In this document: positions 21,372 through 53,985 of the stretch, one piece after another
Layout: the number at the start of each line of letters is the position of its first letter
How positions within the stretch are numbered: the stretch's first letter is position 1
Assembly: GCA_965224245.1 (NCBI GenBank)
Contig: OZ245046.1
Coordinates: forward strand, 3,552,001-3,616,000
Direction of reading: 5' to 3'
DNA from: Candidatus Eiseniibacteriota bacterium
Lineage (GTDB): Bacteria > Eisenbacteria > RBG-16-71-46 > CAZAMP01
Length of the DNA stretch: 64,000 nt
The notes under the pieces: generated by a model
Databases searched by the model: none
Told to the model about the DNA's origin: nothing
Seen by the model: only the letters and a program-made list of their open reading frames with translations
Program-made: the position numbers and the translations under genes

Positions 21372-24173
21372 TCAGGCCCCGTGCACGGCGAACGCACCCC
21401 AGTAGAACGGGTGCGTCCAGGACTCGCGGACCCGCTCGCGCGCCCGCCGGAGGACGAGGGCGGTGTCGGCACCCGGCGACCCGGCGGAGAGGCCGTCGTA
21501 GAACGCATCCATCAGCGCCGCGGTGGCCCGATCGTGCACACGCCAGTGGCTGGCCACGAGCTGCCGTGCGCCGGCCGCGAGGAATGCGTGCGTGACTCCC
21601 GATAGATCGTCGCCGTCGCCGGTGAACGTCTGCCCGCTCGCGCACGCGCTCAGGACGACCAGATCGCATGCGATCCGGCGATCCATCAGGTCGGCCACGA
21701 AGAGGGCGCCGTCCAGCGTGCTCAGCCGGGAGAACAGCGGGTTGTCGTCCCGGAAGACGCCGTGCGTGGACAGGTGCAGCAGGCCGTCGCGCTCGGCCAC
21801 GGCGAGCACGTCGTCGGTCGTCGGATCCACGAGCACCGACGGCCCCAGCGCCTCCAGGCGCGCGGCCACCGCCCGAAGCTCACGCGGCACCGATGCGGGC
21901 CCTCCGTCGACGAGCCCCGCGATCGTCACGCGACGCGACGCCGCCCGGCGGCGCCTGGGACGGACCAGATCCACCGTGGGCGAGCGCGCGATCGTCCAGC
22001 GCTCGTCCGCATAGCATCGCCCATCGTGAAGACATTCGAACGGAACGTGGTGGGTCGGACCGTCGGGCACGATCACGAGACGACCACACGTGAGACGGTC
22101 CTCGATCGGTCGGAGGAGCGTGTCGTAGAGACGGCGCAGGACCTCGTCGGCGGCGCGACGCTGGAACGCCACGTTGCCCATCCGATCGGCGGCCAGGGCC
22201 ATCGTGTCGAGCTGATGGCGAACACGCCCCACGAGATCGACGAGCGTCGAGGTGCTCTCCTCGATCGTCCGGTGCCACACGTCGTTGCGTGAGATCCCGA
22301 TCACGAGCAGGGACTCTGGCAGGACGGTGTAGGACAGGACCAGGGTGTCCGCGGGCAACCGTCGTCGAACCTGGTCCAGATCGCGCCGCCGCACGGTGCG
22401 CGGCCCGGAGTCGTGGGCTCCCGCGTCTCGCCGTCGCTCCGCGGATGCGATCCGGCGCTCGAGTCGCGTGATCCGACGGCGCAGGCGCTCCCCCTCCCGC
22501 CCGAGTGCGCGCTCCGGCTCGTCGTACTCCCAGCTCTCGAGCCGGCGTGTCAACGCACCGAGTCGCACGCGTGCGTCGTCGTGCGCCGCGCTCGTGCCGC
22601 CCCGTGTCCGCCGCGCGTGAAGGCGCTCGCGGTGGGCGCGTCCTCGGACCTCCTCGACGACGTCCAGGAGCACGGCCGGATCCACGCGGCGCCGCTCCGC
22701 CAGCAGCGCCGCGAGCTCACGATAGGCGCGCGCATGGGTCGCGAACGCGTGCGCGCGATAGGCGATGCCGGGGATCGTCAAGCGCTCGGACTCCGCCGCG
22801 GTGATGGCCCGCTTCAGCGCCCGGCGGGCCTCGCGATCGTCGTGCCGGCGTCGGGCCACGCTCCCCACGGCCAGCCAGTAGCTCGCCTGCGCGCCAGCGG
22901 GAAGTCGGGATACGGCATCACGTCCTCCGGCGAGCGTCCTCGCCGCGAGGTCGGCGCGTCCCTGTGCGAGCCGGCACGCCGAGACGACCTCGCGCGCCTC
23001 GAGCTCCGCGCGAACGTCCCCGGTCTTCGCGAACCGCACCCGCGCGAGACCGGCCAGCTCGAGCGCGGGGGTGAGGTCCCCGGCCTCGAGCCGCGCCCGG
23101 GCGGCCGCCAGGCGACACGTCGCCAGCCGCGACCAGTATCGCTCGTGACGGAAGTACGCAAGCGGGACCTCCAGCCGCTCGGCGGCCCGCCGCGCGTGGC
23201 CGGCACGGACCAGCGCCCGCGCCTCGGTGACGCGGGCGAGCATGGCATCGACGACCAGGCCCTCGTCGTCGAACGCGGTCGTCCCCGCCCGGGCCTCCTC
23301 GATCGCGTCGCGCGGCATGCCCAGATCCAGAAAGGTGTTGGCGCGCTGCAGCCGTGCCGCCGCGACCATGTCGCGCGCGTCCATCGACTCGAAGAGATCG
23401 CTGCATGCTTCCAGACAGCCGAGGGCGGCTCGGTAGTCGCCGAGCACGCGCTCGAGGTGGGATCGGTTGTACAGGGCCTGTGCGCGGATGCGCGACAGCC
23501 CGAGGCGCTCGCTCTCCTCCTCGGCTTCGCGAAACCGCTCGCGCGCCTCGCGCACCCGATCGAGATTGGTCGCCGCCACCCCGCGGTTGACCAGGAGCGA
23601 GACGGTGGTGGCGTCGGCGATCCCGGCCTTCTCGAACTCGGCTCGGGCGCGCCGGTAGAGACCGTCCGCGTCGGCATGGCGCTCCTGGTGATAGGCCAGG
23701 TTGCCGAGGTTCATGTAGAGCTTGGCCAGATACACCCGGTCGCCCGCGCTCCGAAGCAGTCGCTCCGCTCGACGCGCCGCGCGGTTGGACGCCCGCGTAT
23801 CGCCCAGCACCCCCAGCACACCGACCCAGCCCACGAGGATCTCGCCGAGCAGGCGATCGGCGCCCGCGCGCTCAGCGTGCGCGCTGGCGTCGCGGTAGGC
23901 GGCGTTCGCATCCGCGAGGTGTCCGGCGTAGATGGAGGCCTCGGCGCGAGCCCGGGCCGCGATCGCCCGGACGTGAGCGTCGTCGAGACCGTCGGTGGCG
24001 GCGGTGAGGGCGTCGGCAATGGCCAGGGCCGCCGCCGGGTCCTTTCCGAGAAGCGACGCCACACGATCCCGAACCGATGTGGCAACGTCGAGGGTTGGCG
24101 GAGGTCCGGTGCCGAGGTGCGCGATCAGCGCGCCCGGCGCGAGGGCGGCAGGGTCGATGCCGGATGACGTCAC
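21372..24173 (-). CDS. TPR-repeat + CHAT (caspase-like cysteine protease) protein
   Basis: TPR-like helices (LAKLYMNLGNLAY...), LVIVPDGPTHHVPFECL, catalytic His in LHLSTHG, Cys in VVLSACASG, end HPFYWGAF. Confidence 0.93.
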   Translation of the reverse strand: MTSSGIDPAALAPGALIAHLGTGPPPTLDVATSVRDRVASLLGKDPAAALAIADALTAATDGLDDAHVRAIAARARAEASIYAGHLADANAAYRDASAHAERAGADRLLGEILVGWVGVLGVLGDTRASNRAARRAERLLRSAGDRVYLAKLYMNLGNLAYHQERHADADGLYRRARAEFEKAGIADATTVSLLVNRGVAATNLDRVREARERFREAEEESERLGLSRIRAQALYNRSHLERVLGDYRAALGCLEACSDLFESMDARDMVAAARLQRANTFLDLGMPRDAIEEARAGTTAFDDEGLVVDAMLARVTEARALVRAGHARRAAERLEVPLAYFRHERYWSRLATCRLAAARARLEAGDLTPALELAGLARVRFAKTGDVRAELEAREVVSACRLAQGRADLAARTLAGGRDAVSRLPAGAQASYWLAVGSVARRRHDDREARRALKRAITAAESERLTIPGIAYRAHAFATHARAYRELAALLAERRRVDPAVLLDVVEEVRGRAHRERLHARRTRGGTSAAHDDARVRLGALTRRLESWEYDEPERALGREGERLRRRITRLERRIASAERRRDAGAHDSGPRTVRRRDLDQVRRRLPADTLVLSYTVLPESLLVIGISRNDVWHRTIEESTSTLVDLVGRVRHQLDTMALAADRMGNVAFQRRAADEVLRRLYDTLLRPIEDRLTCGRLVIVPDGPTHHVPFECLHDGRCYADERWTIARSPTVDLVRPRRRRAASRRVTIAGLVDGGPASVPRELRAVAARLEALGPSVLVDPTTDDVLAVAERDGLLHLSTHGVFRDDNPLFSRLSTLDGALFVADLMDRRIACDLVVLSACASGQTFTGDGDDLSGVTHAFLAAGARQLVASHWRVHDRATAALMDAFYDGLSAGSPGADTALVLRRARERVRESWTHPFYWGAFAVHGA

Positions 24174-24223
24174 CGGGATCGCGAGCCTCTCTGAGGCGTG
24201 GCGCGACTACGCGGACACGCCGG

Positions 24224-24928
24224 TCATGCCTGCTCGTCGATCCGGAACGGTGGGATGTGGACCCGATCGGACCCGAGCGTGAACGTGAGCTCGAACTCGC
24301 CCCAGGGTAGGGCATCGAAGACGAACTCGCCAAACTCGTTCAGGTCGGCCTCGGTCGGGGTCGAGGATGCGCTCGCGCGAACCGTGACCGTGCGGCGCGG
24401 CGGCAGCTCGTCCGCGGCGGTGGGCGTCACCTGACCGCGCAGGACGCAGCGATCGGCCTCGCGGTCGGCCGACACGGAGATCGCATAGGCGTCGGTGTCG
24501 TAGACGAGGAGCCGCGGTGATGCCGACACGGCTCCGCGGACCGCGGCGGACGGCCGGAGCGAATCGGCGACCAGCGTGGCCACGATCTCGCGCAACCCGT
24601 CGGCGATGCGCGCACCGAGACCGGCGGCGGCACGGTCGGACGACGACCGCGCTCCGCGCAGCTGGGAGAGGGCGCGGTTGATGGCGGCGACGTCGGGCGA
24701 CACGTCTCCGGCGACCACGAGGCCGCGGGCGAACCGCACCAGCTCGGCGAGCTCGGCGCGGCATCGCGCACAGCCGGCCAGGTGATCGGTCGTCGCCGCC
24801 GCGACCCGCTCCATGGACGCCTCGGCCGTGTCCATCACGCGGGTCGGCCCGGTCCAGCCGCCGGCCTCCAGCCGGTGCCACGCGACCGCGAACAGCTCGT
24901 CCCAGGTGATGTGCGTGTCGTGACTCAT
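24224..24928 (-). CDS. putative soluble zinc-binding anti-sigma factor with C-terminal beta-sandwich domain
   Basis: HLAGCARC (HxxxCxxC) motif, ATGA coupling to the ECF gene, no TM helix seen. Confidence 0.7.
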   Translation of the reverse strand: MSHDTHITWDELFAVAWHRLEAGGWTGPTRVMDTAEASMERVAAATTDHLAGCARCRAELAELVRFARGLVVAGDVSPDVAAINRALSQLRGARSSSDRAAAGLGARIADGLREIVATLVADSLRPSAAVRGAVSASPRLLVYDTDAYAISVSADREADRCVLRGQVTPTAADELPPRRTVTVRASASSTPTEADLNEFGEFVFDALPWGEFELTFTLGSDRVHIPPFRIDEQA

Positions 24929-25566
24929 GTCCGCTCCTCGGTCGGCCGCGCCGCCAGAGTGGGAGACCCGGAAGGTCTCTCGTCCTTCGCGCGTGTGGAC
25001 CCTCGGCCGGGCGGCGATGATACCTCCCCGAAGCGTTTTTGGAGCTTCTTGAGGCACCGGCCGCGGCTGGGCCCGATGCTGCCGATCGGGATCTCGGTGC
25101 GCGCGACGATCTCCTCGTAGCTGGGCCGCGGCTCCTCGAGAAAGAGCGCGCTCAGGAGCTCGCGACATCGTGGATCGAGAGAGGTCACGAGCGACCGGAG
25201 TCGCTTCGCGTCCTCGACGGCCATGATGACCTCCTCGACGTCCGGGGCCTCGTCGGGCATGTCGCCCACGTCACGGTCCGCGTCGTCCGCGGCCAGGTCG
25301 GGCCGGCGGCGGGTGGCGATGTCGAGGGCGGCCCGGTAGGCGATGCTGTAGATCCACGAGGGGAGCTTGTCGAGGTCGCGGAGGCGATCGATGGCGCGAA
25401 ACGCGGCCAGCCAGGCGTTCTGCTCGGCGTCCTCCCGGTCGTCCGCCGAGAGCCGGACCCGCCGGCAGGCCACGCGCACGAGCCCACCGTAGTCCTCCAT
25501 GATCGTCCGCCAGGACGCCTCGTCGCCGGCGATCAACGATTCGATGTCGACGTCCCGTCGCTCCAC
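24925..25566 (-). CDS. ECF RNA polymerase sigma factor
   Basis: Region 2 DREDAEQNAW...LPSWIYSIAYR; region 4 SYEEIVARTEIPIGSIGPSRGRCLKKL. Confidence 0.93.
   Translation of the reverse strand: MERRDVDIESLIAGDEASWRTIMEDYGGLVRVACRRVRLSADDREDAEQNAWLAAFRAIDRLRDLDKLPSWIYSIAYRAALDIATRRRPDLAADDADRDVGDMPDEAPDVEEVIMAVEDAKRLRSLVTSLDPRCRELLSALFLEEPRPSYEEIVARTEIPIGSIGPSRGRCLKKLQKRFGEVSSPPGRGSTRAKDERPSGSPTLAARPTEERT
24997..25024 (-). promoter_or_regulatory. putative ECF promoter copy 1 (G-GTATCA-N15-GGGTCC) in the sigma 3' end, facing anti-sigma/CHAT
   Basis: One of four equally spaced motif copies (see findings). Confidence 0.55.
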
Positions 25567-25677
25567 GAGTCCCCCGGTCCCCGCCTGGTTGGTGACGCAC
25601 GCGCTCCGTCGACTCTACGTGAGCGACCGAAAACGGGTCAAACCAGCCGGCAGAGATCGGGGTTTCTCGTCGTCCCT

Positions 25678-25705
25678 GGTATCATTCACGGCATGCCCGG
25701 CATCT
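25678..25705 (+). promoter_or_regulatory. putative ECF promoter copy 2 (G-GTATCA-N15-GCATCT) ahead of the subtilase
   Basis: Ends 23 bp before the ATG at 25729. Confidence 0.6.
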
Positions 25706-25728
25706 GCCTCGGTGGGGGGAGCCACGCC

Positions 25729-27231
25729 ATGTCCCGGTTCATCCGTTCGATCGCCACATCGTCGCTGCTGGTGGCAGGTTCCGCATCGGCGGACCACCAC
25801 GAGCCCTATCCGCCGGATCAGGTGATTCTCCACCTCTACCCGGACTACGACATCAGCGAGGTCAACGAGCGGTGGATGACCACCACGCTCTCGTCGATTC
25901 CGGGCACCGATCTCTACGTCGTTCAGACGCCCACCTACCCCAAGGACCTCGAGGGCTACACGGACCTCATGGAGGCCGAGGACGTCGCCATCATGACGGC
26001 CGAGCCCAACTGGACCCAGGGCACCCCCGAGAGCGTGCGCCAGATGGTGCTGATCGCGGTGGGCGGCGACTACGTGGACTTCGAGGACCAGGGGCTCGGC
26101 GAGCGGATCGGTCTGGACCCCGCGCACGCTCTCAGCACGGGCGCCGGCACCACCATCGCCCTCCTCGACACGGGGGTCGATCCGATGCACGACGCGTTCG
26201 TGGGTCGGCTGCGTCCCGACGGGCTGGACACCGTCGACGACGACACGACGCCCTGGGAGGTGTCGAACGGCATCGACGACGACCTCGACGGCACGATCGA
26301 CGGGGGCTTCGGCCACGGATCCATGGTGGGCGGCATCCTCGCCCTGACCGCCCCCGACGCCGAGATCCTGCCCGTCCGCGTGCTCGACGACGAGGGACGC
26401 GGGTCCACCTGGGACATCCTGGAGGGCCTCGCCCACGTGATCTCGGCCGGCGACGTGGACGTGATCAACATGAGCTTCGGCGTTCCCGACCACGTCGAGT
26501 CGCTGGCGGCACTCGTCGTCCAGGCCGACGTCGCCGGCATCGTCATGGTGGCCGGGGCGGGTAACGGCTCGTCGGAGGAGCCCGCCTACTTCCCGGCCCG
26601 GCACTCCAGCGTGCTGATGGTGACGGCGCTCGACTCCACCGACGTCAAGGCCGACTTCGCCGACTGGAACGTGCTGGTGGACGTCTCCGCGCCGGGCACC
26701 GGCGTTCGCAGCGCCTATCCCGGCAACGGCTGGGCGCTCGGCAGCGGCTGCTCGTTCGCGACGCCGTTCGTGGCCGCCGAGGCCGCGCTGGTCCGGAGCA
26801 CGAGCCCGCTCGCGTCGACCTGGGAGATCCGTTCCGCCGTCCGGGGCGGCGTCGTCCCGATCGATCACCTCCCGGGGAACGCCCCGTACGTGGGACAGCT
26901 GGGGACCGGTCGCATCTACGTTCCGGGCTCGCTCCCGGGGACGGTGGCGGTGGACGATCCCCGCGGCGGCCCCGGCTCGCGGCTCTTCTCCCTCGGTCCC
27001 AATCCGACGCGAGGCGTCGTGCGCATCCGCGGCCTCGGGGGCCGATCGATCGACCGGGCCGAGGTCTACGACCTCGCCGGACGGCGCGTCGTCGTCCTCG
27101 AGGGTCCGGCGAGCACGATCGGGTGGGACGGCCGGACCGGATCCGGGCTCCTGGCGGCGCCCGGCATCTACGTCGTGAAGGTCACGAGCGGATCGACGAC
27201 GGCATCGTCACGGCTCCAGGTCGTTCGCTGA
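25729..27231 (+). CDS. secreted S8 subtilisin-like serine protease with FlgD-Ig/T9SS-like C-terminal domain
   Basis: Signal peptide ASA-D, LLDTGVD, GHGSMVGG, AGAGN, GSGCSFATP; tail PNPT...YDLAGRRV...WDGR...PGIY. Confidence 0.92.
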   Translation: MSRFIRSIATSSLLVAGSASADHHEPYPPDQVILHLYPDYDISEVNERWMTTTLSSIPGTDLYVVQTPTYPKDLEGYTDLMEAEDVAIMTAEPNWTQGTPESVRQMVLIAVGGDYVDFEDQGLGERIGLDPAHALSTGAGTTIALLDTGVDPMHDAFVGRLRPDGLDTVDDDTTPWEVSNGIDDDLDGTIDGGFGHGSMVGGILALTAPDAEILPVRVLDDEGRGSTWDILEGLAHVISAGDVDVINMSFGVPDHVESLAALVVQADVAGIVMVAGAGNGSSEEPAYFPARHSSVLMVTALDSTDVKADFADWNVLVDVSAPGTGVRSAYPGNGWALGSGCSFATPFVAAEAALVRSTSPLASTWEIRSAVRGGVVPIDHLPGNAPYVGQLGTGRIYVPGSLPGTVAVDDPRGGPGSRLFSLGPNPTRGVVRIRGLGGRSIDRAEVYDLAGRRVVVLEGPASTIGWDGRTGSGLLAAPGIYVVKVTSGSTTASSRLQVVR

Positions 27232-27319: not shown

Positions 27320-27934
27320 TCACCGCTCCGCGGTCGCGACCACGTCCAGCGATGCGTCCTGGACCTCGCCCAGCTTCAGGAACAGGAACTTCGGACGTGA
27401 GATCGAGTAGTCGTCGAGCCGGACCGGAAACGCGGTGACGGCGCGCAGCGTCGAGGCGTCGGCGGCCAGGGTCAGCGTCACGAGGACCTCGATCCGGCGC
27501 GAGACGCCGTGCAGCGTCAGGGTCCCCGCCATGCGCACGTCGGTCGGCTGGCCGGCCGCGAGCGACGATGGCGGCTCGCCGAGCAGCGACGCGCCGCGGA
27601 ACGTCGCGGTGGGATGGCGATCGGTCTCGAGGTGGTTCTCCCGCATGTCCGCGTTCCGCTTGCCGATGCCGGTGTCGAGACTCGCCATGTCGACCTCGAC
27701 GACCACCGTGATGGAGTCGCCGAGCGCGGCGGGGTCGCACTCGATCACGCCGCTGACGGCGGTCGTCTTCCCGGTGAAAGACTCGAGCGGAGCGTGAGAC
27801 TCGAACTGCACCCGCGATTCGTCACCGGCGGCGATGACGAACCGCTCGGCGTGGGTGGGAATCGCGAACGTGATCACGGTCAGCATCGTGAGCGCATGGA
27901 TCGCCCACCGCCGCGATCGGGCCGGCACGTGCAC
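27320..27934 (-). CDS. YceI family periplasmic lipid/polyisoprenoid-binding protein
   Basis: SRVQF, SLDTGIGKRNADMRENHLETDRHPTATF, GTLTLHGVSR; signal peptide; GTG start after AAGGAG. Confidence 0.9.
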   Translation of the reverse strand: MHVPARSRRWAIHALTMLTVITFAIPTHAERFVIAAGDESRVQFESHAPLESFTGKTTAVSGVIECDPAALGDSITVVVEVDMASLDTGIGKRNADMRENHLETDRHPTATFRGASLLGEPPSSLAAGQPTDVRMAGTLTLHGVSRRIEVLVTLTLAADASTLRAVTAFPVRLDDYSISRPKFLFLKLGEVQDASLDVVATAER

Positions 27935-28012
27935 GGCGCATCGCTCCTTCTCCGGCCGTCTCCCGGGCAGTCGAAAACGGCGGCGCGCGTCGAGACGCGC
28001 CGTTCGAGATGA

Positions 28013-28040
28013 AGAGCCCGCGGCCGCCTCGTTTGATACC
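28013..28040 (-). promoter_or_regulatory. putative ECF promoter copy 3 (G-GTATCA-N15-GGCTCT) ahead of yceI
   Basis: Same motif and spacing as copies 1 and 2. Confidence 0.6.
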
Positions 28041-40036: not shown

Positions 40037-43000
40037 TCACGCGTGGGCGTGGGATCGAAGGCGAGACATCGCGGCGCTCAGGATCTCGTCCTCGGTCAGA
40101 CCGACCGATCCCGCCCAGACGCGTCCGAACGCCGCGTCGCCCAGCGCCCTGCGACAGCGCTGCCGCGCCCTGGACAGCACCTCGGCGCGCGCGGGCACCA
40201 GCTCGGTGCGCGTCCGGCGCCGGTGCTTCTCGGACCAGGCGAGAAACCCCGTCGCGCCCTCGTGATCGCCGAGGCTCGCCAGTGCGAGCCCGCACTCGCG
40301 GACCTGCACGCCTGCGCTCGTACGTCCGTCACCCATCGCGAACGTCAGACCGGCCCGGGCGGCGTCCAGCATGGCCCGCCGATCCCCGCGCACGATGTGC
40401 ACGCGCGTGAGCATCTCGAGCGCGTACGAGCGAGACTGGGGATCCCCGGCCCGTCGCGCGAGCGCGAGCGCCTCCTCGGCGCGCGTCGCGGCGACGTCGA
40501 GCTCCTCGGGGTAGAGCTCCGGCGCGCTCATCCGGCACAGCGTGATCGCGATCGCCTGTAACGCACCGTTCTCACGCGCCACCCGGAGACATCGCTCGTA
40601 GTGCACCCTGGCCTCGTCGTACCGGCGCTCCATCTCGGCGAGAAGTCCGAGGTTCAGGAGCGACCGGACGACGTGTCCGCCGGTGAGCTCGGACATGTCC
40701 AGGGCCAGCGCCTCGGTGTAGCACGCCCTCGCGGTCTCGCGGTCGCGAAGACGCTGCGCCGCCGCCCCCCGGTTCAAGAGTCCCGTGGCCACGGTGGCCA
40801 CGTCGCCCTCGCGCCTCGCGAGCGCGATGCACGCCTCGGCGTACCCGATCGCGGATCGGCTGTCCCCGAGCTCCATGGAGACCAGGGCCAGGTTGCTCAA
40901 CGCGATCGCCTCGCCGCGGACCTCCCCGATCGCGCGATACACCTCGAGGGCGTCCCGGTGGTGGCGCCGTGCGCGCTCGAACTCGTGGAAGTTCCAGAAG
41001 ATGTTCCCGACCGCGGTCCACGTGCGCGCCCACTCCCGGGTCTCGGTCCGGAGATCGGGACGCGCCGCGAGTGCCTCGGACACCTCGCGCGCGCGCCGGA
41101 AGCGGTTCCGGCGATCCCAGTACAGGATCAGCAGCGCGGCCACCGGCATCAGCGTCGCGATCTCGTTCTCGCGTGCGAGGCAGCGATCCACCACGACGTC
41201 CACGTTCTCCCGATCCCGGTCCAGCAGCTCCAGCGCGGGCCCTGGATCGGGGGATCGGATGTCGGGCGCCACCGAGACGATGCGCGCGATGAAGTGGTCG
41301 CGGTGACGAACCGCCACCACGTCCTCGCGACCGGATCGCGAGAGCGCTCGGCGGGCGAACTGGCGTATCGTCTCCAGCATGCGGTACCGGCTCGCCGGCG
41401 AGCCGCCGTCGGGGAGTCGCTCGACGAGGGACTTGTCCACGAGGGCTTCCAGCGCGGCGGTCGCGTCGTCCGGACCGGGCAGGTCGCCGGCCGCGGCGGC
41501 GATCGCCTCCACCGCGGCCAGATCGAAGCTCCCCGCAAACACGGAGAGGTTCTCGAACAGGACCCGATCGGCGTCGGTGAGCTGCTCGACGGACCACTCG
41601 ATCAGACCGACCAGCGTGCGATGGTGGGGGAGCCCCGTGCGCTGGCGGGACACGAGCAATCGGAAGCGATCCTGCAGCCGGTCCAGAACCTCGTGCGCGG
41701 TGAGCAGGCGGAGCTTCGCCGCCGCCAGCTCGATCGCGAGCGGGATCCCGTCGAGCTCGCGGCAGATGGCGGCCACGACCGGCGCCGTGTCCGCGCGCAG
41801 CTCGAATGCGGGCGTGACCGCGCGCGCGCGATCCCGGAACAGGCGGACCGCCTCGTTGGCGCCGAGCGCCTCGGTGTCCGTCACGTCGGGCTCCGGTACA
41901 CGAAGCGGATCGATCCCGACCACGTGCTCGCCGGGCACGCGAAGGGGCTCCCGGCTCGTGGCGAGCACGTTCACCCCTGCGCACGTCTCCAGGAGCCGCG
42001 TCACGAGGACGGCGACCGGGTCCAGCACGTGCTCGCAGTTGTCGAGGATCACGAGCACCCGCCGGCCGCGCACCGCCGCGACCAGCGCGTCCAGCGGGTC
42101 CCGACCCGGCTCGACGCCGACATCCAGCGCCTCGACGACGCGGCCGGCCACGTCCCCCGCCGGGCCGAGTGGCGAGAGCTCGATCCAGAAGACGCCGTCG
42201 CCGAATCCGGCCAGCGCGTCGCGCGCCAGCTCCAGGCACAGACGAGACTTGCCGGAGCCGCCGGTTCCGGTCACGGTCACGACGCGTTCTCGATGCACGA
42301 GATCGGAGATGTGCGCGATCTCGGCCTCGCGACCGACGAAGCTGGTGGCGGTGGCGGGGAGGTTGTGCGGGGCCCGGTCGGCCCCCACCAGCGCCTCGGC
42401 CATCTCGGTCATCGCCTCGAATCGGTCGCGGGGATCGGGGGCCATCGCGCGTTCGACGACCCGGACGAACGGCGCGGGCACGTCGGGCCGCCGGTCGCGG
42501 AGCGACGGCGGCCCTCCGCGACGGTGCCGATCGCGGATCTCGTCGACGGTGCGTCCGGCGACCGGATGCGTGCGGGTGACGAGCCGGAACAGCAGCACGC
42601 CCAGTGCGTACACGTCGCCGGCCACGCTGGTCGGCGCGCCCTCGAACGCCTCGGGCGGCATCGCGACCGGTGTTCCCACGAGCGGACGCAAGGACGCCGA
42701 CCCGTCTCGCGGCAGGTCCGAGACCGCCCCGAAGTCCGACAGAAGCACCCGGCCGTCGCGATCACACAGGACGTTTGCGGCCTTCACGTCGCCGTGGACC
42801 AGCCCCGCCTCGTGCACGGCCGCGAGCGCGCTCGCCAGCGCGCCACCGATCCGGCACGCCTCGGATACCGAGAGCGGTCCCTCGGTCTCCAGCCGCGCCT
42901 CCAGGTCGGTACCGCGCACGAAGTCGGTCCAGAGCCCGACCCGGCCGCCGTGGATGTCCGCACCGTGGATCGTCAGCACGTTCGGATGCCGGACGCGGGC

Positions 43001-43348
43001 GTGCCGGCGGGCCTCCTCCAGGAAGGACCGGGCGGCCGTGATGTCGTCGGTCGCGCCGACGCGCCGCAGCTTGAGGGCCACCTCGCGGTCGAGCCGGGGA
43101 TCGATCGCCCGGTACACGTCCCCGAAGCTCCCCCGGCCGACCTCCTCGAACACCCGGAGCGGACCCCACGAGAACTGCGGCTCCTCGCGCGGCGCCGGCG
43201 AGGCGACGCGCCGGAAGCCGGCCGCGACCGCCTCGACGATCCGGAGACCGCCGAGATCCTCGTCCTCCACCGTGTCCCAGTCGATGGGTCGTTCGTCCGC
43301 GATCCACTCGGCCAGACGGGCCCGCCGACCGTCGTGCTCCCGGGTCAT
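40037..43348 (-). CDS. Ser/Thr protein kinase + STAND (NB-ARC-like) ATPase + TPR repeats
   Basis: GRGSFG, VALK, HGDVKAAN, DFG; Walker A GTGGSGKS, Walker B ILDNCEH, LDGIPLAIELAA; C-terminal TPRs; GAGGAGG RBS. Confidence 0.93.
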   Translation of the reverse strand: MTREHDGRRARLAEWIADERPIDWDTVEDEDLGGLRIVEAVAAGFRRVASPAPREEPQFSWGPLRVFEEVGRGSFGDVYRAIDPRLDREVALKLRRVGATDDITAARSFLEEARRHARVRHPNVLTIHGADIHGGRVGLWTDFVRGTDLEARLETEGPLSVSEACRIGGALASALAAVHEAGLVHGDVKAANVLCDRDGRVLLSDFGAVSDLPRDGSASLRPLVGTPVAMPPEAFEGAPTSVAGDVYALGVLLFRLVTRTHPVAGRTVDEIRDRHRRGGPPSLRDRRPDVPAPFVRVVERAMAPDPRDRFEAMTEMAEALVGADRAPHNLPATATSFVGREAEIAHISDLVHRERVVTVTGTGGSGKSRLCLELARDALAGFGDGVFWIELSPLGPAGDVAGRVVEALDVGVEPGRDPLDALVAAVRGRRVLVILDNCEHVLDPVAVLVTRLLETCAGVNVLATSREPLRVPGEHVVGIDPLRVPEPDVTDTEALGANEAVRLFRDRARAVTPAFELRADTAPVVAAICRELDGIPLAIELAAAKLRLLTAHEVLDRLQDRFRLLVSRQRTGLPHHRTLVGLIEWSVEQLTDADRVLFENLSVFAGSFDLAAVEAIAAAAGDLPGPDDATAALEALVDKSLVERLPDGGSPASRYRMLETIRQFARRALSRSGREDVVAVRHRDHFIARIVSVAPDIRSPDPGPALELLDRDRENVDVVVDRCLARENEIATLMPVAALLILYWDRRNRFRRAREVSEALAARPDLRTETREWARTWTAVGNIFWNFHEFERARRHHRDALEVYRAIGEVRGEAIALSNLALVSMELGDSRSAIGYAEACIALARREGDVATVATGLLNRGAAAQRLRDRETARACYTEALALDMSELTGGHVVRSLLNLGLLAEMERRYDEARVHYERCLRVARENGALQAIAITLCRMSAPELYPEELDVAATRAEEALALARRAGDPQSRSYALEMLTRVHIVRGDRRAMLDAARAGLTFAMGDGRTSAGVQVRECGLALASLGDHEGATGFLAWSEKHRRRTRTELVPARAEVLSRARQRCRRALGDAAFGRVWAGSVGLTEDEILSAAMSRLRSHAHA

Positions 43349-43421
43349 GACGACCTCCTCTCCCCTCTCGATCGACGGGTCGAGGGCGCGGAATCGCACA
43401 GGAGAGCGCGCCGCCGGACGA

Positions 43422-43997
43422 TCACCGGTGCTTCCCGAGCAGGGTCGAGAGGTGCGCGATGGATCGCGACACGGCCATGCGGGCCGCGTTGGCCGAGGGG
43501 CTCCCGATCGCGTCGGCGATCTCCTGGTAGGACATCTGAAACTCCAGGCGAAGGATGACCGCCTCCCGCGCGGCCTCCGGCAGTGTCGCCAGTGCCTCCT
43601 CGTAGGCATCCAGCGTGTCGCGCCCGATCGCCTGCTCCAGAAGCGATGCCTGCGCGTCCGGGATCTCCTCGGAGATCGCGTCACGCTGCGTCCGGCTCGA
43701 TGCGCGGCGCAGCTCGTCCCGAAGCGCGTTCAGGAGCGTCTGGCGCAGGTAGGCCAGAAACGCACCCTCCCGCTCGGCCCGGAACGACTCGATCTGCTTC
43801 AGGACGCGGACGAGGGTCACCTGGACGAGGTCGTCGGTGTCCGTCATGCCGCGCCCGGCGGCCGGTAGCCGACCGTGTGCCCAACGCCGGAGAATCGGCA
43901 GGTAGCGGGCCAGCAGTCGATCGCGAGCCGCCTCGTCGCCGCCGCGGTAGAGGCTCAGCAGATGCGCGGTCGAGTCCGGCGCGGGTCTGGATGACAC
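43422..43997 (-). CDS. ECF sigma factor, kinase-associated type
   Basis: WAHGRLP...TDTDDLVQ, region 4 MSYQEIADAIGSPSANAARM; directly upstream of the kinase. Confidence 0.9.
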   Translation of the reverse strand: MSSRPAPDSTAHLLSLYRGGDEAARDRLLARYLPILRRWAHGRLPAAGRGMTDTDDLVQVTLVRVLKQIESFRAEREGAFLAYLRQTLLNALRDELRRASSRTQRDAISEEIPDAQASLLEQAIGRDTLDAYEEALATLPEAAREAVILRLEFQMSYQEIADAIGSPSANAARMAVSRSIAHLSTLLGKHR

Positions 43998-52056: not shown

Positions 52057-53985
52057 TCACCCGCCAGAGAGCCCGGCCCCCGCGACTCGCCCGTCCCCGG
52101 CCCGGCGGGTCCACCCGACCCGATCGCAGTACTCGAGGATCGGCACCGCATGCTTTCGCGACACGCCGTCCAGGACATCCTTCGCGTCGCCGACCGATAG
52201 GGTCTCGTGCTCGGTGAAGAACCGGCGGAGCCGCTCGCGCAGCTCGAGGACCCGCGCCGACGTGAACGCGTACTCGTTGGAGATCTGGACCAGCCGCCCC
52301 TCGAACACGAGCCGTGCGATCAGGTCGGGTCCTTGCTCCACGCCGAGGGTCTTGATGACGTGCGACAGCAGCGACACCGCGAACCCCTCGGCCTCCAGCC
52401 GCTCGTCGATCGCCCCGGCCAGCGAGGCGACCTCGTCGGGCAACGCGTCGGACTGGTCGACGTCGGCGATCTGCTCGCCACGCTCCCGCACGCGGCCGGC
52501 TTCGACCGCGCGGCGCCGGGCCGCGTCGAACAGGGCCGGGTTCATGTCCCTGCCCAGACGCCCCTTCAGCTCTCCGATGCCGATCCCCCAGCGGTAAGGG
52601 TGCTCCCGGTGGTGGAGGGCGATCTCGGCCGCCACCCGATCCACCGCCTCGTCGAGCGCGGACTGGAGGAACAGCCGATTCTCTCCCACGACGCGTCCGG
52701 CGTCGCGTGCCTCGGCGGCCAGCGCCGCGAACTCGGGTGCCGGCATCCCGAGCGAGGCCCGGAGGTTCTTGGCGCTCTCCCCGTCGAGCCCGGCGACCCC
52801 CAGCAGATCGCACAGCCGATCCACCGGGGTGCCCTCCTCGAGCCGTCGCAGCTCGGCGGCCGGATCTCCGTGGTGGCGGCGCCGCTTGGCCGCCACCGGG
52901 ACCACGATGGTGCCGCCGCCGATCGTGCGCATCGGGGAGTACGAACGCACGACGAACCGGTCGCCGGCCTCGGCCACGCCCGGCGATTCCAGGCGCAGCT
53001 GCACCGGCGCGCGCTGGCCGGGCTCGATCTCGTCCCGGTCGAGCAGCACCAATCGGGCCAGGAGCTCCGAGGCCCCGATGTGGACCCTCACGCGAGCCCG
53101 ATTGGCCAGCGCCTTGGGCGCGCTCGGCAGGAGCCGGAACCACGCGTCCATCATGTGCGAGCTCGTCAGCACGTCGGACTTGACCACCCACGCGCCGCGA
53201 TGGAGGCGATCCTTCTCCACCCGATGCAGGCTCAGGGCGACCCGCTGCCCGGCGCTCGCGCGCTCGACCTCGGTGTCGTGCACCTGCACCGTCTTCACGC
53301 GGGTCTCGATGCCCTCGGGGAGGACGACGACGGGATCCCCCACGCCGAGGCTCCCGTTCCAGAGCGTACCCGTGACCACGGTGCCGAACCCCTGAAGCGT
53401 GAAGATCCGATCCACGGGAAGCCGCGTCTCGCGCCCCCGCGCGACGAACGCCTCGTCTGCGAGCCGGCTCTCGATCTCACGCCGCACGTCGGCGACGCCC
53501 TCGCCGGTCTTGGCCGAGCACCGCACGATCGGCTTTCCCTCGAAGACGGTGCCGGCGATCACGTTGGTGATGTCGGCGTCCACGATGTCGAGCCACTCGT
53601 CGTCGGGGACGAGGTCGGTCTTCGTGACCACGACGAAGCCGTCGGGGATGTCGAGGAGGTTCACGATCTCGAGGTGCTCGCGCGTCTGGGGCATGACGCC
53701 CTCGTCGGCGGCCACCACCAGCAGCACCAGATCCATGCCGCCGGCGCCGGCGAGCATCTGCTTGACGAAGCGCTCGTGTCCGGGCACGTCGACGATGCCC
53801 ACGCGGCGCCCGGACGGAAGATCCAGAAACGCGAAGCCCAGCTCGATCGAGATCCCGCGCTTCTTCTCCTCGGGGAGCCGATCGGTGTGGATGCCGGTCA
53901 GGCGCTCGATGAGCGCGCTCTTCCCGTGGTCGATGTGCCCGGCGGTGCCGACGATGGCGGCTCTGGCGACGGTGGCGGAGCTCAT
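52057..53985 (-). CDS. selB: selenocysteine-specific elongation factor SelB
   Basis: GTAGHIDHGKS, DRLPEEKKRGISIELGFA, DVPGHERF, C-terminal winged helix SRKHAVPILEYCD. Confidence 0.96.
   Translation of the reverse strand: MSSATVARAAIVGTAGHIDHGKSALIERLTGIHTDRLPEEKKRGISIELGFAFLDLPSGRRVGIVDVPGHERFVKQMLAGAGGMDLVLLVVAADEGVMPQTREHLEIVNLLDIPDGFVVVTKTDLVPDDEWLDIVDADITNVIAGTVFEGKPIVRCSAKTGEGVADVRREIESRLADEAFVARGRETRLPVDRIFTLQGFGTVVTGTLWNGSLGVGDPVVVLPEGIETRVKTVQVHDTEVERASAGQRVALSLHRVEKDRLHRGAWVVKSDVLTSSHMMDAWFRLLPSAPKALANRARVRVHIGASELLARLVLLDRDEIEPGQRAPVQLRLESPGVAEAGDRFVVRSYSPMRTIGGGTIVVPVAAKRRRHHGDPAAELRRLEEGTPVDRLCDLLGVAGLDGESAKNLRASLGMPAPEFAALAAEARDAGRVVGENRLFLQSALDEAVDRVAAEIALHHREHPYRWGIGIGELKGRLGRDMNPALFDAARRRAVEAGRVRERGEQIADVDQSDALPDEVASLAGAIDERLEAEGFAVSLLSHVIKTLGVEQGPDLIARLVFEGRLVQISNEYAFTSARVLELRERLRRFFTEHETLSVGDAKDVLDGVSRKHAVPILEYCDRVGWTRRAGDGRVAGAGLSGG

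Follow-up and report, generated by a model that had tools for sequence, protein, structure and literature searches.

The 64-kb window analyzed here, the whole stretch of DNA under study from a Candidatus Eiseniibacteriota genome, contains a cassette of four genes encoding a sigma factor of the extracytoplasmic function (ECF) type, a soluble protein directly downstream of it (the +1 protein) with a homology-assigned zinc anti-sigma domain, a tetratricopeptide repeat (TPR)-CHAT protease, and a divergently transcribed S8 subtilase. The four genes are real, and the cassette is conserved across at least seven phyla. It is a non-actinobacterial variant of the catalogued ECF54 context and not a new kind of system; it works like ECF54, and we do not file it as a member of that group. 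We lean toward reading it as a cytoplasmic proteolytic switch, in which a ligand-activated, caspase-like CHAT protease would cut the anti-sigma factor and free a sigma factor that drives a secretome. Compared to the catalogue, the anti-sigma domain, an invariant arginine of the +1 protein (Arg131), its predicted docking on the protease, the promoter and its enrichment before secretome genes, and a subtilase insert tracking the TPR groove are new. Stand-alone bacterial TPR-CHAT proteases are common, and substrates are known for a few defense systems only. The features of the locus are the following (window positions):

24925..25566, minus strand: ECF sigma factor gene, 213 aa, ECF54-like, GSIGPxRxRC motif; its last ~35 codons overlap a promoter-like site
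24224..24928, minus strand: soluble +1 protein gene, 234 aa; residues 1-95 form a putative zinc anti-sigma domain, 123-138 the Arg loop, and 139-230 a beta-sandwich
24761..24784, minus strand: zinc motif of the +1 protein, H49-x3-C53-x2-C56 (with H6)
24536..24538, minus strand: Arg131 codon of the +1 protein, the sole invariant family column; candidate P1 residue of a putative cleavage
21372..24173, minus strand: TPR-CHAT protease gene, 933 aa, cytoplasmic, H804/C844, separase/Csx29-like fold
22143..22238, minus strand: TPR-CHAT helical hairpin 646-677, predicted docking site for the +1 protein beta-sandwich
25729..27231, plus strand: S8 subtilase gene, 500 aa; signal stretch, pro-domain, catalytic domain, sorting tail resembling FlgD/type IX secretion system (T9SS) tails
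26032..26067, plus strand: 12-residue subtilase insert at the predicted mature N-terminus; tentative candidate peptide signal
25612..25641, minus strand: sigma70-type promoter-like site TTGACC-18-TAGAGT 5' of the sigma gene, by consensus match only
24996..25023, minus strand: ECF54-type promoter-like site in the sigma gene 3' end, 5' of the anti-sigma and TPR-CHAT genes; part of the matrix training set
25679..25706, plus strand: ECF54-type promoter-like site 5' of the subtilase gene, with a weaker -10 box, score 13.9
27320..27886, minus strand: gene encoding a secreted YceI-like protein, its start uncertain; probably part of the regulon and not a conserved component of the cassette
28012..28039, minus strand: ECF54-type promoter-like site 5' of the YceI gene, score 21.5

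A conserved cassette related to the ECF54 context

The stop codon of the sigma gene overlaps the start of the +1 protein gene as ATGA, and a 50-bp gap separates the latter from the TPR-CHAT gene. The sigma factor matched Sigma70_r2 (E 3e-9) and, above the cut-off, TIGR02937; the protease matched CHAT (E 1e-44), its H804 lying within LHLSTHG and its C844 within LSACASG; and the subtilase matched Peptidase_S8 (E 9e-33), with a likely start at 25729 and with D147, H196, S342, and the oxyanion N279 present, a Cys replacing the usual Thr before the catalytic Ser. This layout had been described correctly in a sequence-only reading of the DNA, including the catalytic dyad, the intact divergent protease gene, and the absence of a membrane helix from the HxxxCxxC-containing +1 protein, whose top 19-residue hydropathy reaches only 0.95. 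That reading had also found no cas genes at the locus, and searches for Cas1 and RAMP proteins across the host genome (97% complete) likewise gave no match.

Its supposition that the genes remain linked in other genomes was borne out. The +1 protein was matched in 21 of 61 related genomes, the own genome included, and the loci surrounding 20 of the 30 matches outside it contained TPR-CHAT (20/20), sigma (19/20), and S8 (17/20) genes. This linkage is far above chance. Furthermore, at least 597 stretches were found in a scan with the sigma motif, of which the 80 best, spread over seven phyla, were kept, and partners were called by our own profiles. Among these best 80 loci, all three partners were found in 35, the +1 protein and CHAT without S8 in 11, CHAT and S8 in 5, the +1 protein only in 4, and S8 only or CHAT only in 1 each, so that the +1 protein occurred together with TPR-CHAT in 46 and S8 in 41. 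Many of these loci are interrupted by contig ends, and reading by eye added +1 proteins missed by the profile. At one locus (L035:374-7811), two sigma/+1-protein pairs converge on one TPR-CHAT and one subtilase gene. The host genome itself encodes a second sigma/+1 protein/CHAT cassette (44, 31, and 43% identical to that of the window, respectively) and at least 11 further CHAT-like proteins.

Similar neighborhoods, which the sequence-only reading had thought might exist elsewhere, are catalogued as the ECF54 context: the supplement to Casas-Pastor et al. 2021 (PMC7826278) and a review (PMC8999054) describe a +1 carboxypeptidase-regulatory-like protein, a subtilase, and a TPR-CHAT protein, and the former lists the group as 100% Actinobacteria, without a putative anti-sigma factor and with a GTATCAG (-35)/CTCC (-10) promoter. 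The window cassette shares the sigma factor, the linked subtilase and TPR-CHAT protein, a promoter of this type, and such a +1 protein, as judged from a PF13620 match (E 0.0012, below the curated cut-off), the beta-sandwich model, and a profile that connects it with those encoded at 11 actinobacterial loci. However, its +1 protein has a zinc anti-sigma domain by homology, and its subtilase is secreted and bears a sorting tail, whereas 0/11 Actinomycetota subtilases have a signal-like stretch. The sigma factors differ in lineage as well: in a tree of 104 rows, none of them a classified ECF54 sequence, the window sigma groups with Ca. Eisenbacteria rows and falls outside a 76-row branch (support 98/97) holding the 37-row, mostly actinobacterial group. 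A literature search, with subscription journals mostly outside its coverage, found no tested mechanism for an ECF54-type cassette. Huang et al. 2015 is reportedly a source for the ECF54 genomic context.

The +1 protein and its predicted docking on the protease

In the model of the +1 protein (predicted local distance difference test score, pLDDT, 82.5), helices at the N-terminus are followed by two short strands (113-122), the loop at 123-138, and the beta-sandwich. The helical domain contains the motif that defines zinc anti-sigma domains, H-x3-C-x2-C with a His or Cys upstream of it (here H6, H49, C53, C56). The zf-HC2 profile did not match the window protein as a single sequence, and the profile of its family matched RsiW (E 6e-6), RslA, ChrR, and the N-terminus of DdvA. 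The family profile also aligned (98% probability) with a membrane anti-sigma factor adjoining the same sigma clade in the absence of a linked CHAT gene; for two Chloroflexota sigma factors of this family, the +1 protein is replaced by such a membrane anti-sigma factor, which shares its N-terminal domain, and CHAT is not linked. On this homology, the +1 protein carries an N-terminal zinc anti-sigma domain, in agreement with its identification as an anti-sigma factor in the sequence-only reading. The zinc motif is kept in all Eisenbacteria (6/6) and Acidobacteriota (11/11) rows.

Single-sequence searches with the +1 protein returned no relatives, and a profile search returned 11 proteins. Fold searches of its model, which left the N-terminal part untouched, gave generic beta-sandwich matches only (best Z 8.9, root-mean-square deviation 2.4, 84 aligned residues). 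Csx30 and CalpT were absent from these matches, a result that excludes neither, and Csx30 was unmatched in the profile searches too.

According to the family alignments, the invariant core of the +1 proteins is the Arg loop with the beta-sandwich and not the zinc motif. Arg131 is the only invariant column, exceeding even structural Gly and Phe (51/51 rows of two partly overlapping alignments, chosen with a profile that includes the Arg motif). It belongs to a DS-x(5-8)-[AG][VL]R[GS] motif at the position of the modelled loop, and the residue following it is mostly Gly or Ser (44/51). We regard this loop as a candidate CHAT cut site, with Arg131 as candidate P1 residue. The sequence-only reading had placed the cut between the zinc domain and the beta-sandwich; the Arg loop provides a candidate in that interval, but it is a loop of the C-terminal module, following strands 113-122, and not a linker right after the zinc domain.

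Fold matches of the TPR-CHAT model (pLDDT 88.8) were separase, Csx29, and DdvA, with separase being the closest, and the invariant residues of the protease are E765, H800, H804, L841, and C844 (H804, C844, and E765 in 51/51 rows). The Csx29 profile scored only 15.6 bits on it, compared to a cut-off of 300. Residues 66-933 of the protease were modelled in complex with residues 105-234 of the +1 protein, alongside 3 controls. The complex scored 0.74 and the best control 0.00; 116 of 157 solved complexes and 2 of 215 mismatched pairs attained the mark for such scores, which is rough for our own alignments. Model runs share at least 88% of contacts, with a partner pLDDT of at least 77. The beta-sandwich and residues 120-127 of the +1 protein pack on CHAT hairpin 646-677, where a conserved R-F-Q motif of the protease meets Q166 of its partner; among the interface residues are F/H653 (F in 43/51) and Q654, paired with Q166 (47/51). 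The model hence predicts that the beta-sandwich docks on the helical hairpin, in line with the protease/anti-sigma contact that the sequence-only reading had presumed.

Promoter motif, probable secretome output, and the subtilase

The ECF54-type motif consists of GTATCA, a 15-16 nt spacer, and a -10 box that reads CTC[TC] in most phyla and [CG]GTC[CT]/[CG]ACT in the lineage of the window; the -35 box agrees with the published ECF54 consensus. In 41 of 99 loci (shuffle mean 9.5, maximum 19), GTATC was present no more than 170 bases past the sigma-4 coding end; its offsets varied, and a -10 box followed 15-16 bases downstream. In about 10 Eisenbacteria-class genes, including that of the window, it is read as Val-Ser. 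Before the sigma genes, GTATC was no more frequent than expected (15/99 vs 14.1), giving no overall signal of sigma autoregulation; a strong ECF54-type site lies upstream of the paralogous sigma gene of the host genome. Sigma70-type sites number 2 in 7.3 kb (0.2 expected).

A promoter matrix was trained on the 41 post-sigma-4 sites, that of the window included, and applied to contig C1 (6.45 Mb; 4616 genes by our own crude calls), on which 436 genes end in a FlgD/T9SS-like sorting tail. SprA and PorV matches are present in the host genome. Among genes whose upstream non-coding stretch measures 80 bases or more, sites scoring at least 16 precede 14 of 389 sorting-tail genes compared to 10 of 2375 others (p 5e-7), whereas the opposite-strand control gave 3/389 and 16/2375, respectively. 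Sorting-tail genes also follow 15 of the 28 intergenic sites. The predicted targets (22 proteins scanned) are mostly secreted LVIVD, propeller, CHRD, and beta-helix proteins. The site before the YceI gene is the best on the contig within 300 bases of a gene start, and a YceI match was absent from all other cassette loci examined. High-scoring sites genome-wide are mostly intragenic and probably noise, and near cassettes in other genomes the numbers for sorting-tail genes are too small (2/14 sense, 0/14 antisense). The likely output is a secretome regulon rather than an immune response, given the enrichment before sorting-tail genes. The two paralogous sigma factors of the host genome share this regulon and are not distinguishable.

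Plain GTATC before subtilase genes was borderline (12/35; shuffle mean 6.7, maximum 13). With the matrix, a score of at least 12 was reached before 8/35 of them, compared to 4% in shuffles. A GTATTT variant, with the -10 box and the 15-base spacing unchanged, precedes the subtilase gene in 7 loci (L065, L067, L085, L105, L110, L112, and L116) and recurs in Acidobacteriota and Chloroflexota, perhaps reflecting a shifted sigma specificity. We see an even chance that the subtilase is an output of the regulon only, without a role in the trigger, which would be compatible with the core of the proteolytic switch. A pure output role accords with the promoter counts and with the second cassette, whose nearest subtilase paralogue (49%) is encoded 14 kb off among other secreted genes. 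However, S8 genes are kept beside the cassette across phyla (the 41 of the best 80 loci), which holds for no other target, YceI included, and cassette subtilases bear a special insert. In the second cassette region (C1:4243650-4263076), the subtilase gene is the last of a three-gene secreted sorting-tail run, and promoter-like sites are located 5' of the sigma gene and 5' of that run.

The insert, 10-22 residues long, sits where the mature N-terminus is predicted. It is missing from two thermitase-like paralogues of the host genome and occurs as tandem repeats at six Acidobacteriota loci. The signal stretch of the window subtilase is weakly hydrophobic (1.52; our own mark is 2.0) and aligns with clear ones in relatives, a signal-like stretch being present in 42/45 non-actinobacterial cases. 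Across 37 non-actinobacterial, phylogenetically non-independent loci, insert similarity correlated with similarity of the concave TPR face (partial r 0.50, after accounting for subtilase, sigma, and CHAT similarity), compared to 0.16 for the convex face, -0.22 for sigma, and -0.11 for the CHAT domain. Within sub-clades, concave values of 0.23 and 0.28 stood against convex values of -0.02 and 0.09. Four class-5 peptide-binding proteins are encoded in the host genome. Rap proteins were among weak TPR profile matches (E 7e-5 to 8e-4), a generic TPR likeness. RRNPP receptors (Rap, Rgg, NprR) have a TPR superhelix with Asn on its concave face, to which the TPR of the window can be likened; unlike in the window cassette, their output is phosphatase inhibition or DNA binding, and their peptide comes from a small gene of its own.

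The best lead for the trigger is a short peptide that the subtilase would release from its own mature N-terminus. The full peptide quorum-sensing circuit seems rather unlikely to us: the secreted subtilase would free its N-terminal peptide, which would be imported and bind the TPR groove, CHAT would cut at Arg131, and sigma would raise the subtilase and T9SS-type secreted proteins. This idea is a lead only, since the kin are not independent, the segment neighboring the insert gave an r of 0.33 too, and two membranes would have to be crossed. If the peptide link is true, it would represent a caspase-based quorum-sensing circuit across several poorly cultured phyla. We dropped the idea of a common cut site via an [AG]VR motif in the subtilase and the anti-sigma factor, as the motif is confined to one clade and missing from L047 and other phyla. 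At its pro/mature junction, the actinobacterial subtilase of locus L128, which lacks a signal stretch, has a six-residue peptide in four tandem copies.

The proposed switch, its alternatives, and related systems

In the proteolytic switch that we favor, the sigma gene would be read from a housekeeping promoter, and its product would be kept bound by the zinc anti-sigma domain at the N-terminus of the +1 protein, whose beta-sandwich is predicted to dock on the TPR-CHAT hairpin. A ligand in the TPR groove would activate the CHAT dyad, resulting in a loop cut at or next to Arg131, after which the sigma-bound fragment would probably be degraded, as in the cases of Csx30 and RseA. The freed sigma would then read the GTATCA-N15/16 promoter before the anti-sigma and CHAT genes, thereby resetting the switch, and, as suggested by the motif enrichment, the promoters of the subtilase and of approximately 15-25 other secreted sorting-tail proteins.

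Several observations weigh against this reading. The Arg131 loop (128-136), H804, and C844 lie outside the confident contacts of the complex model, which therefore backs docking and not cutting, and its score may stem from resemblance to Csx29-Csx30 or separase complexes. Cleavage at 131 alone would leave residues 1-95 in contact with sigma. In separase, the Asp D2151 binds the P1 Arg (PMC10317155, PMC9729208) and has been matched to Csx29 K670 (PMC9729208); by indirect sequence mapping via K670, its equivalent in the window CHAT is A885, a variable column, so that Arg specificity lacks a proven pocket. E765 and D881 (50/51) are candidates for pocket residues around the P1 Arg, with D881 dropped as the separase-type Asp, as D2151 maps to A885. 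The zinc motif is kept in only 3/8 Chloroflexota, 2/7 Planctomycetota, 0/11 Actinomycetota, and 0/3 Pseudomonadota rows, and its loss in Actinomycetota and many others accounts for ECF54 being recorded without an anti-sigma factor. Finally, 23 of the best 80 sigma loci, 20 of them from Actinomycetota, have no partner by profile, and 5 of the 23 encode a +1 protein with Arg residues in its loop and no linked CHAT; of these 5 possibly incomplete genomes, 3 gave no CHAT match and 2 have other CHAT proteins. Five actinobacterial +1 proteins (L057, L063, L066, L068, and L071) lie just 3' of sigma with an altered loop motif and no linked CHAT or subtilase. In 7 other actinobacterial loci (L069, L083, L089, L097, L101, L121, and L124), family sigma genes without a +1 protein are immediately followed by apparent polysaccharide synthesis genes.

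The same docking would be expected if the +1 protein acted like securin, blocking CHAT with its Arg loop while sigma is freed by partner switching or CHAT has another substrate. This alternative, which we consider unlikely, fits the failure of the model to put the Arg loop into the active site, the lack of the separase-type P1 Asp, and the likeness of the fold to separase, for which securin is a pseudosubstrate inhibitor. However, securin inhibits through a missing P1 Arg (PMC10317155), whereas here the Arg is invariant and followed by Gly or Ser in 44/51 rows, and the CHAT dyad is invariant too.

Characterized TPR-CHAT/sigma pairs are linked to defense, and the cassette could thus be an anti-phage module whose TPR senses a phage product and whose sigma turns on defense genes, as in Craspase or DdvS/DdvA. 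The average GC content of the locus, its housekeeping surroundings, the lack of Cas1 and RAMP matches, and the secreted nature of the predicted targets make this improbable. Least probable of all is the published proposal, given for ECF54 in the PMC7826278 supplement and PMC8999054, that there is no anti-sigma factor and that the proteases control sigma itself by proteolysis: the zinc motif is absent from the actinobacterial +1 protein, and a caspase-like PCaspase cuts a linked sigma in Haliangium (10.1101/2023.06.23.546230), but the +1 protein here has a zinc anti-sigma domain by homology, CHAT is predicted to bind it, and the signal-like stretch in 42/45 non-actinobacterial subtilases would keep the subtilase out of reach of sigma.

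Among known systems, the proteolytic switch would resemble type III-E Craspase (Csx29, Csx30, CASP-sigma; PMC10028731 and PMC9729208), with which it shares the TPR-CHAT fold. Csx30 is bound via its C-terminal domain and cleaved within a loop of that domain, and further degradation is probably required to free the sigma factor (PMC10028731); the N-terminal domain of Csx30 inhibits an ECF sigma, and the +1 protein would behave alike. In contrast, the window cassette has no Cas7-11, CRISPR RNA, or Csx31, its substrate candidate combines a zinc anti-sigma domain with a beta-sandwich and has no Csx30 match, and the candidate P1 residue is Arg instead of Met or Leu. In Myxococcus xanthus, DdvS/DdvA (PMC11506125) likewise unites an ECF sigma, a zinc anti-sigma domain, and TPR-CHAT in one switch; there, however, the domains are fused across the membrane, the CHAT is periplasmic, and RseP is needed, whereas the three proteins of the window are separate and cytoplasmic. 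In the CalpL/CalpT/CalpS system (as summarized in 10.1101/2023.06.23.546230), a soluble two-domain anti-sigma factor bound to its protease is also cut on signal, but the protease is of the Lon type, with a SAVED sensor for cyclic oligoadenylate, and CRISPR-linked.

The locus offers a named candidate substrate, a predicted docking surface, a single candidate cut residue, a reporter promoter, and a candidate trigger peptide, and the mechanism is testable with four genes in a laboratory strain. Elsewhere, the 64-kb window gave no tRNA and no Rfam match. It encodes, on the minus strand, a 1215-aa protein combining a Ser/Thr kinase, a STAND-type NTPase, and TPRs (40037-43684) as well as the elongation factor SelB (52057-53985).

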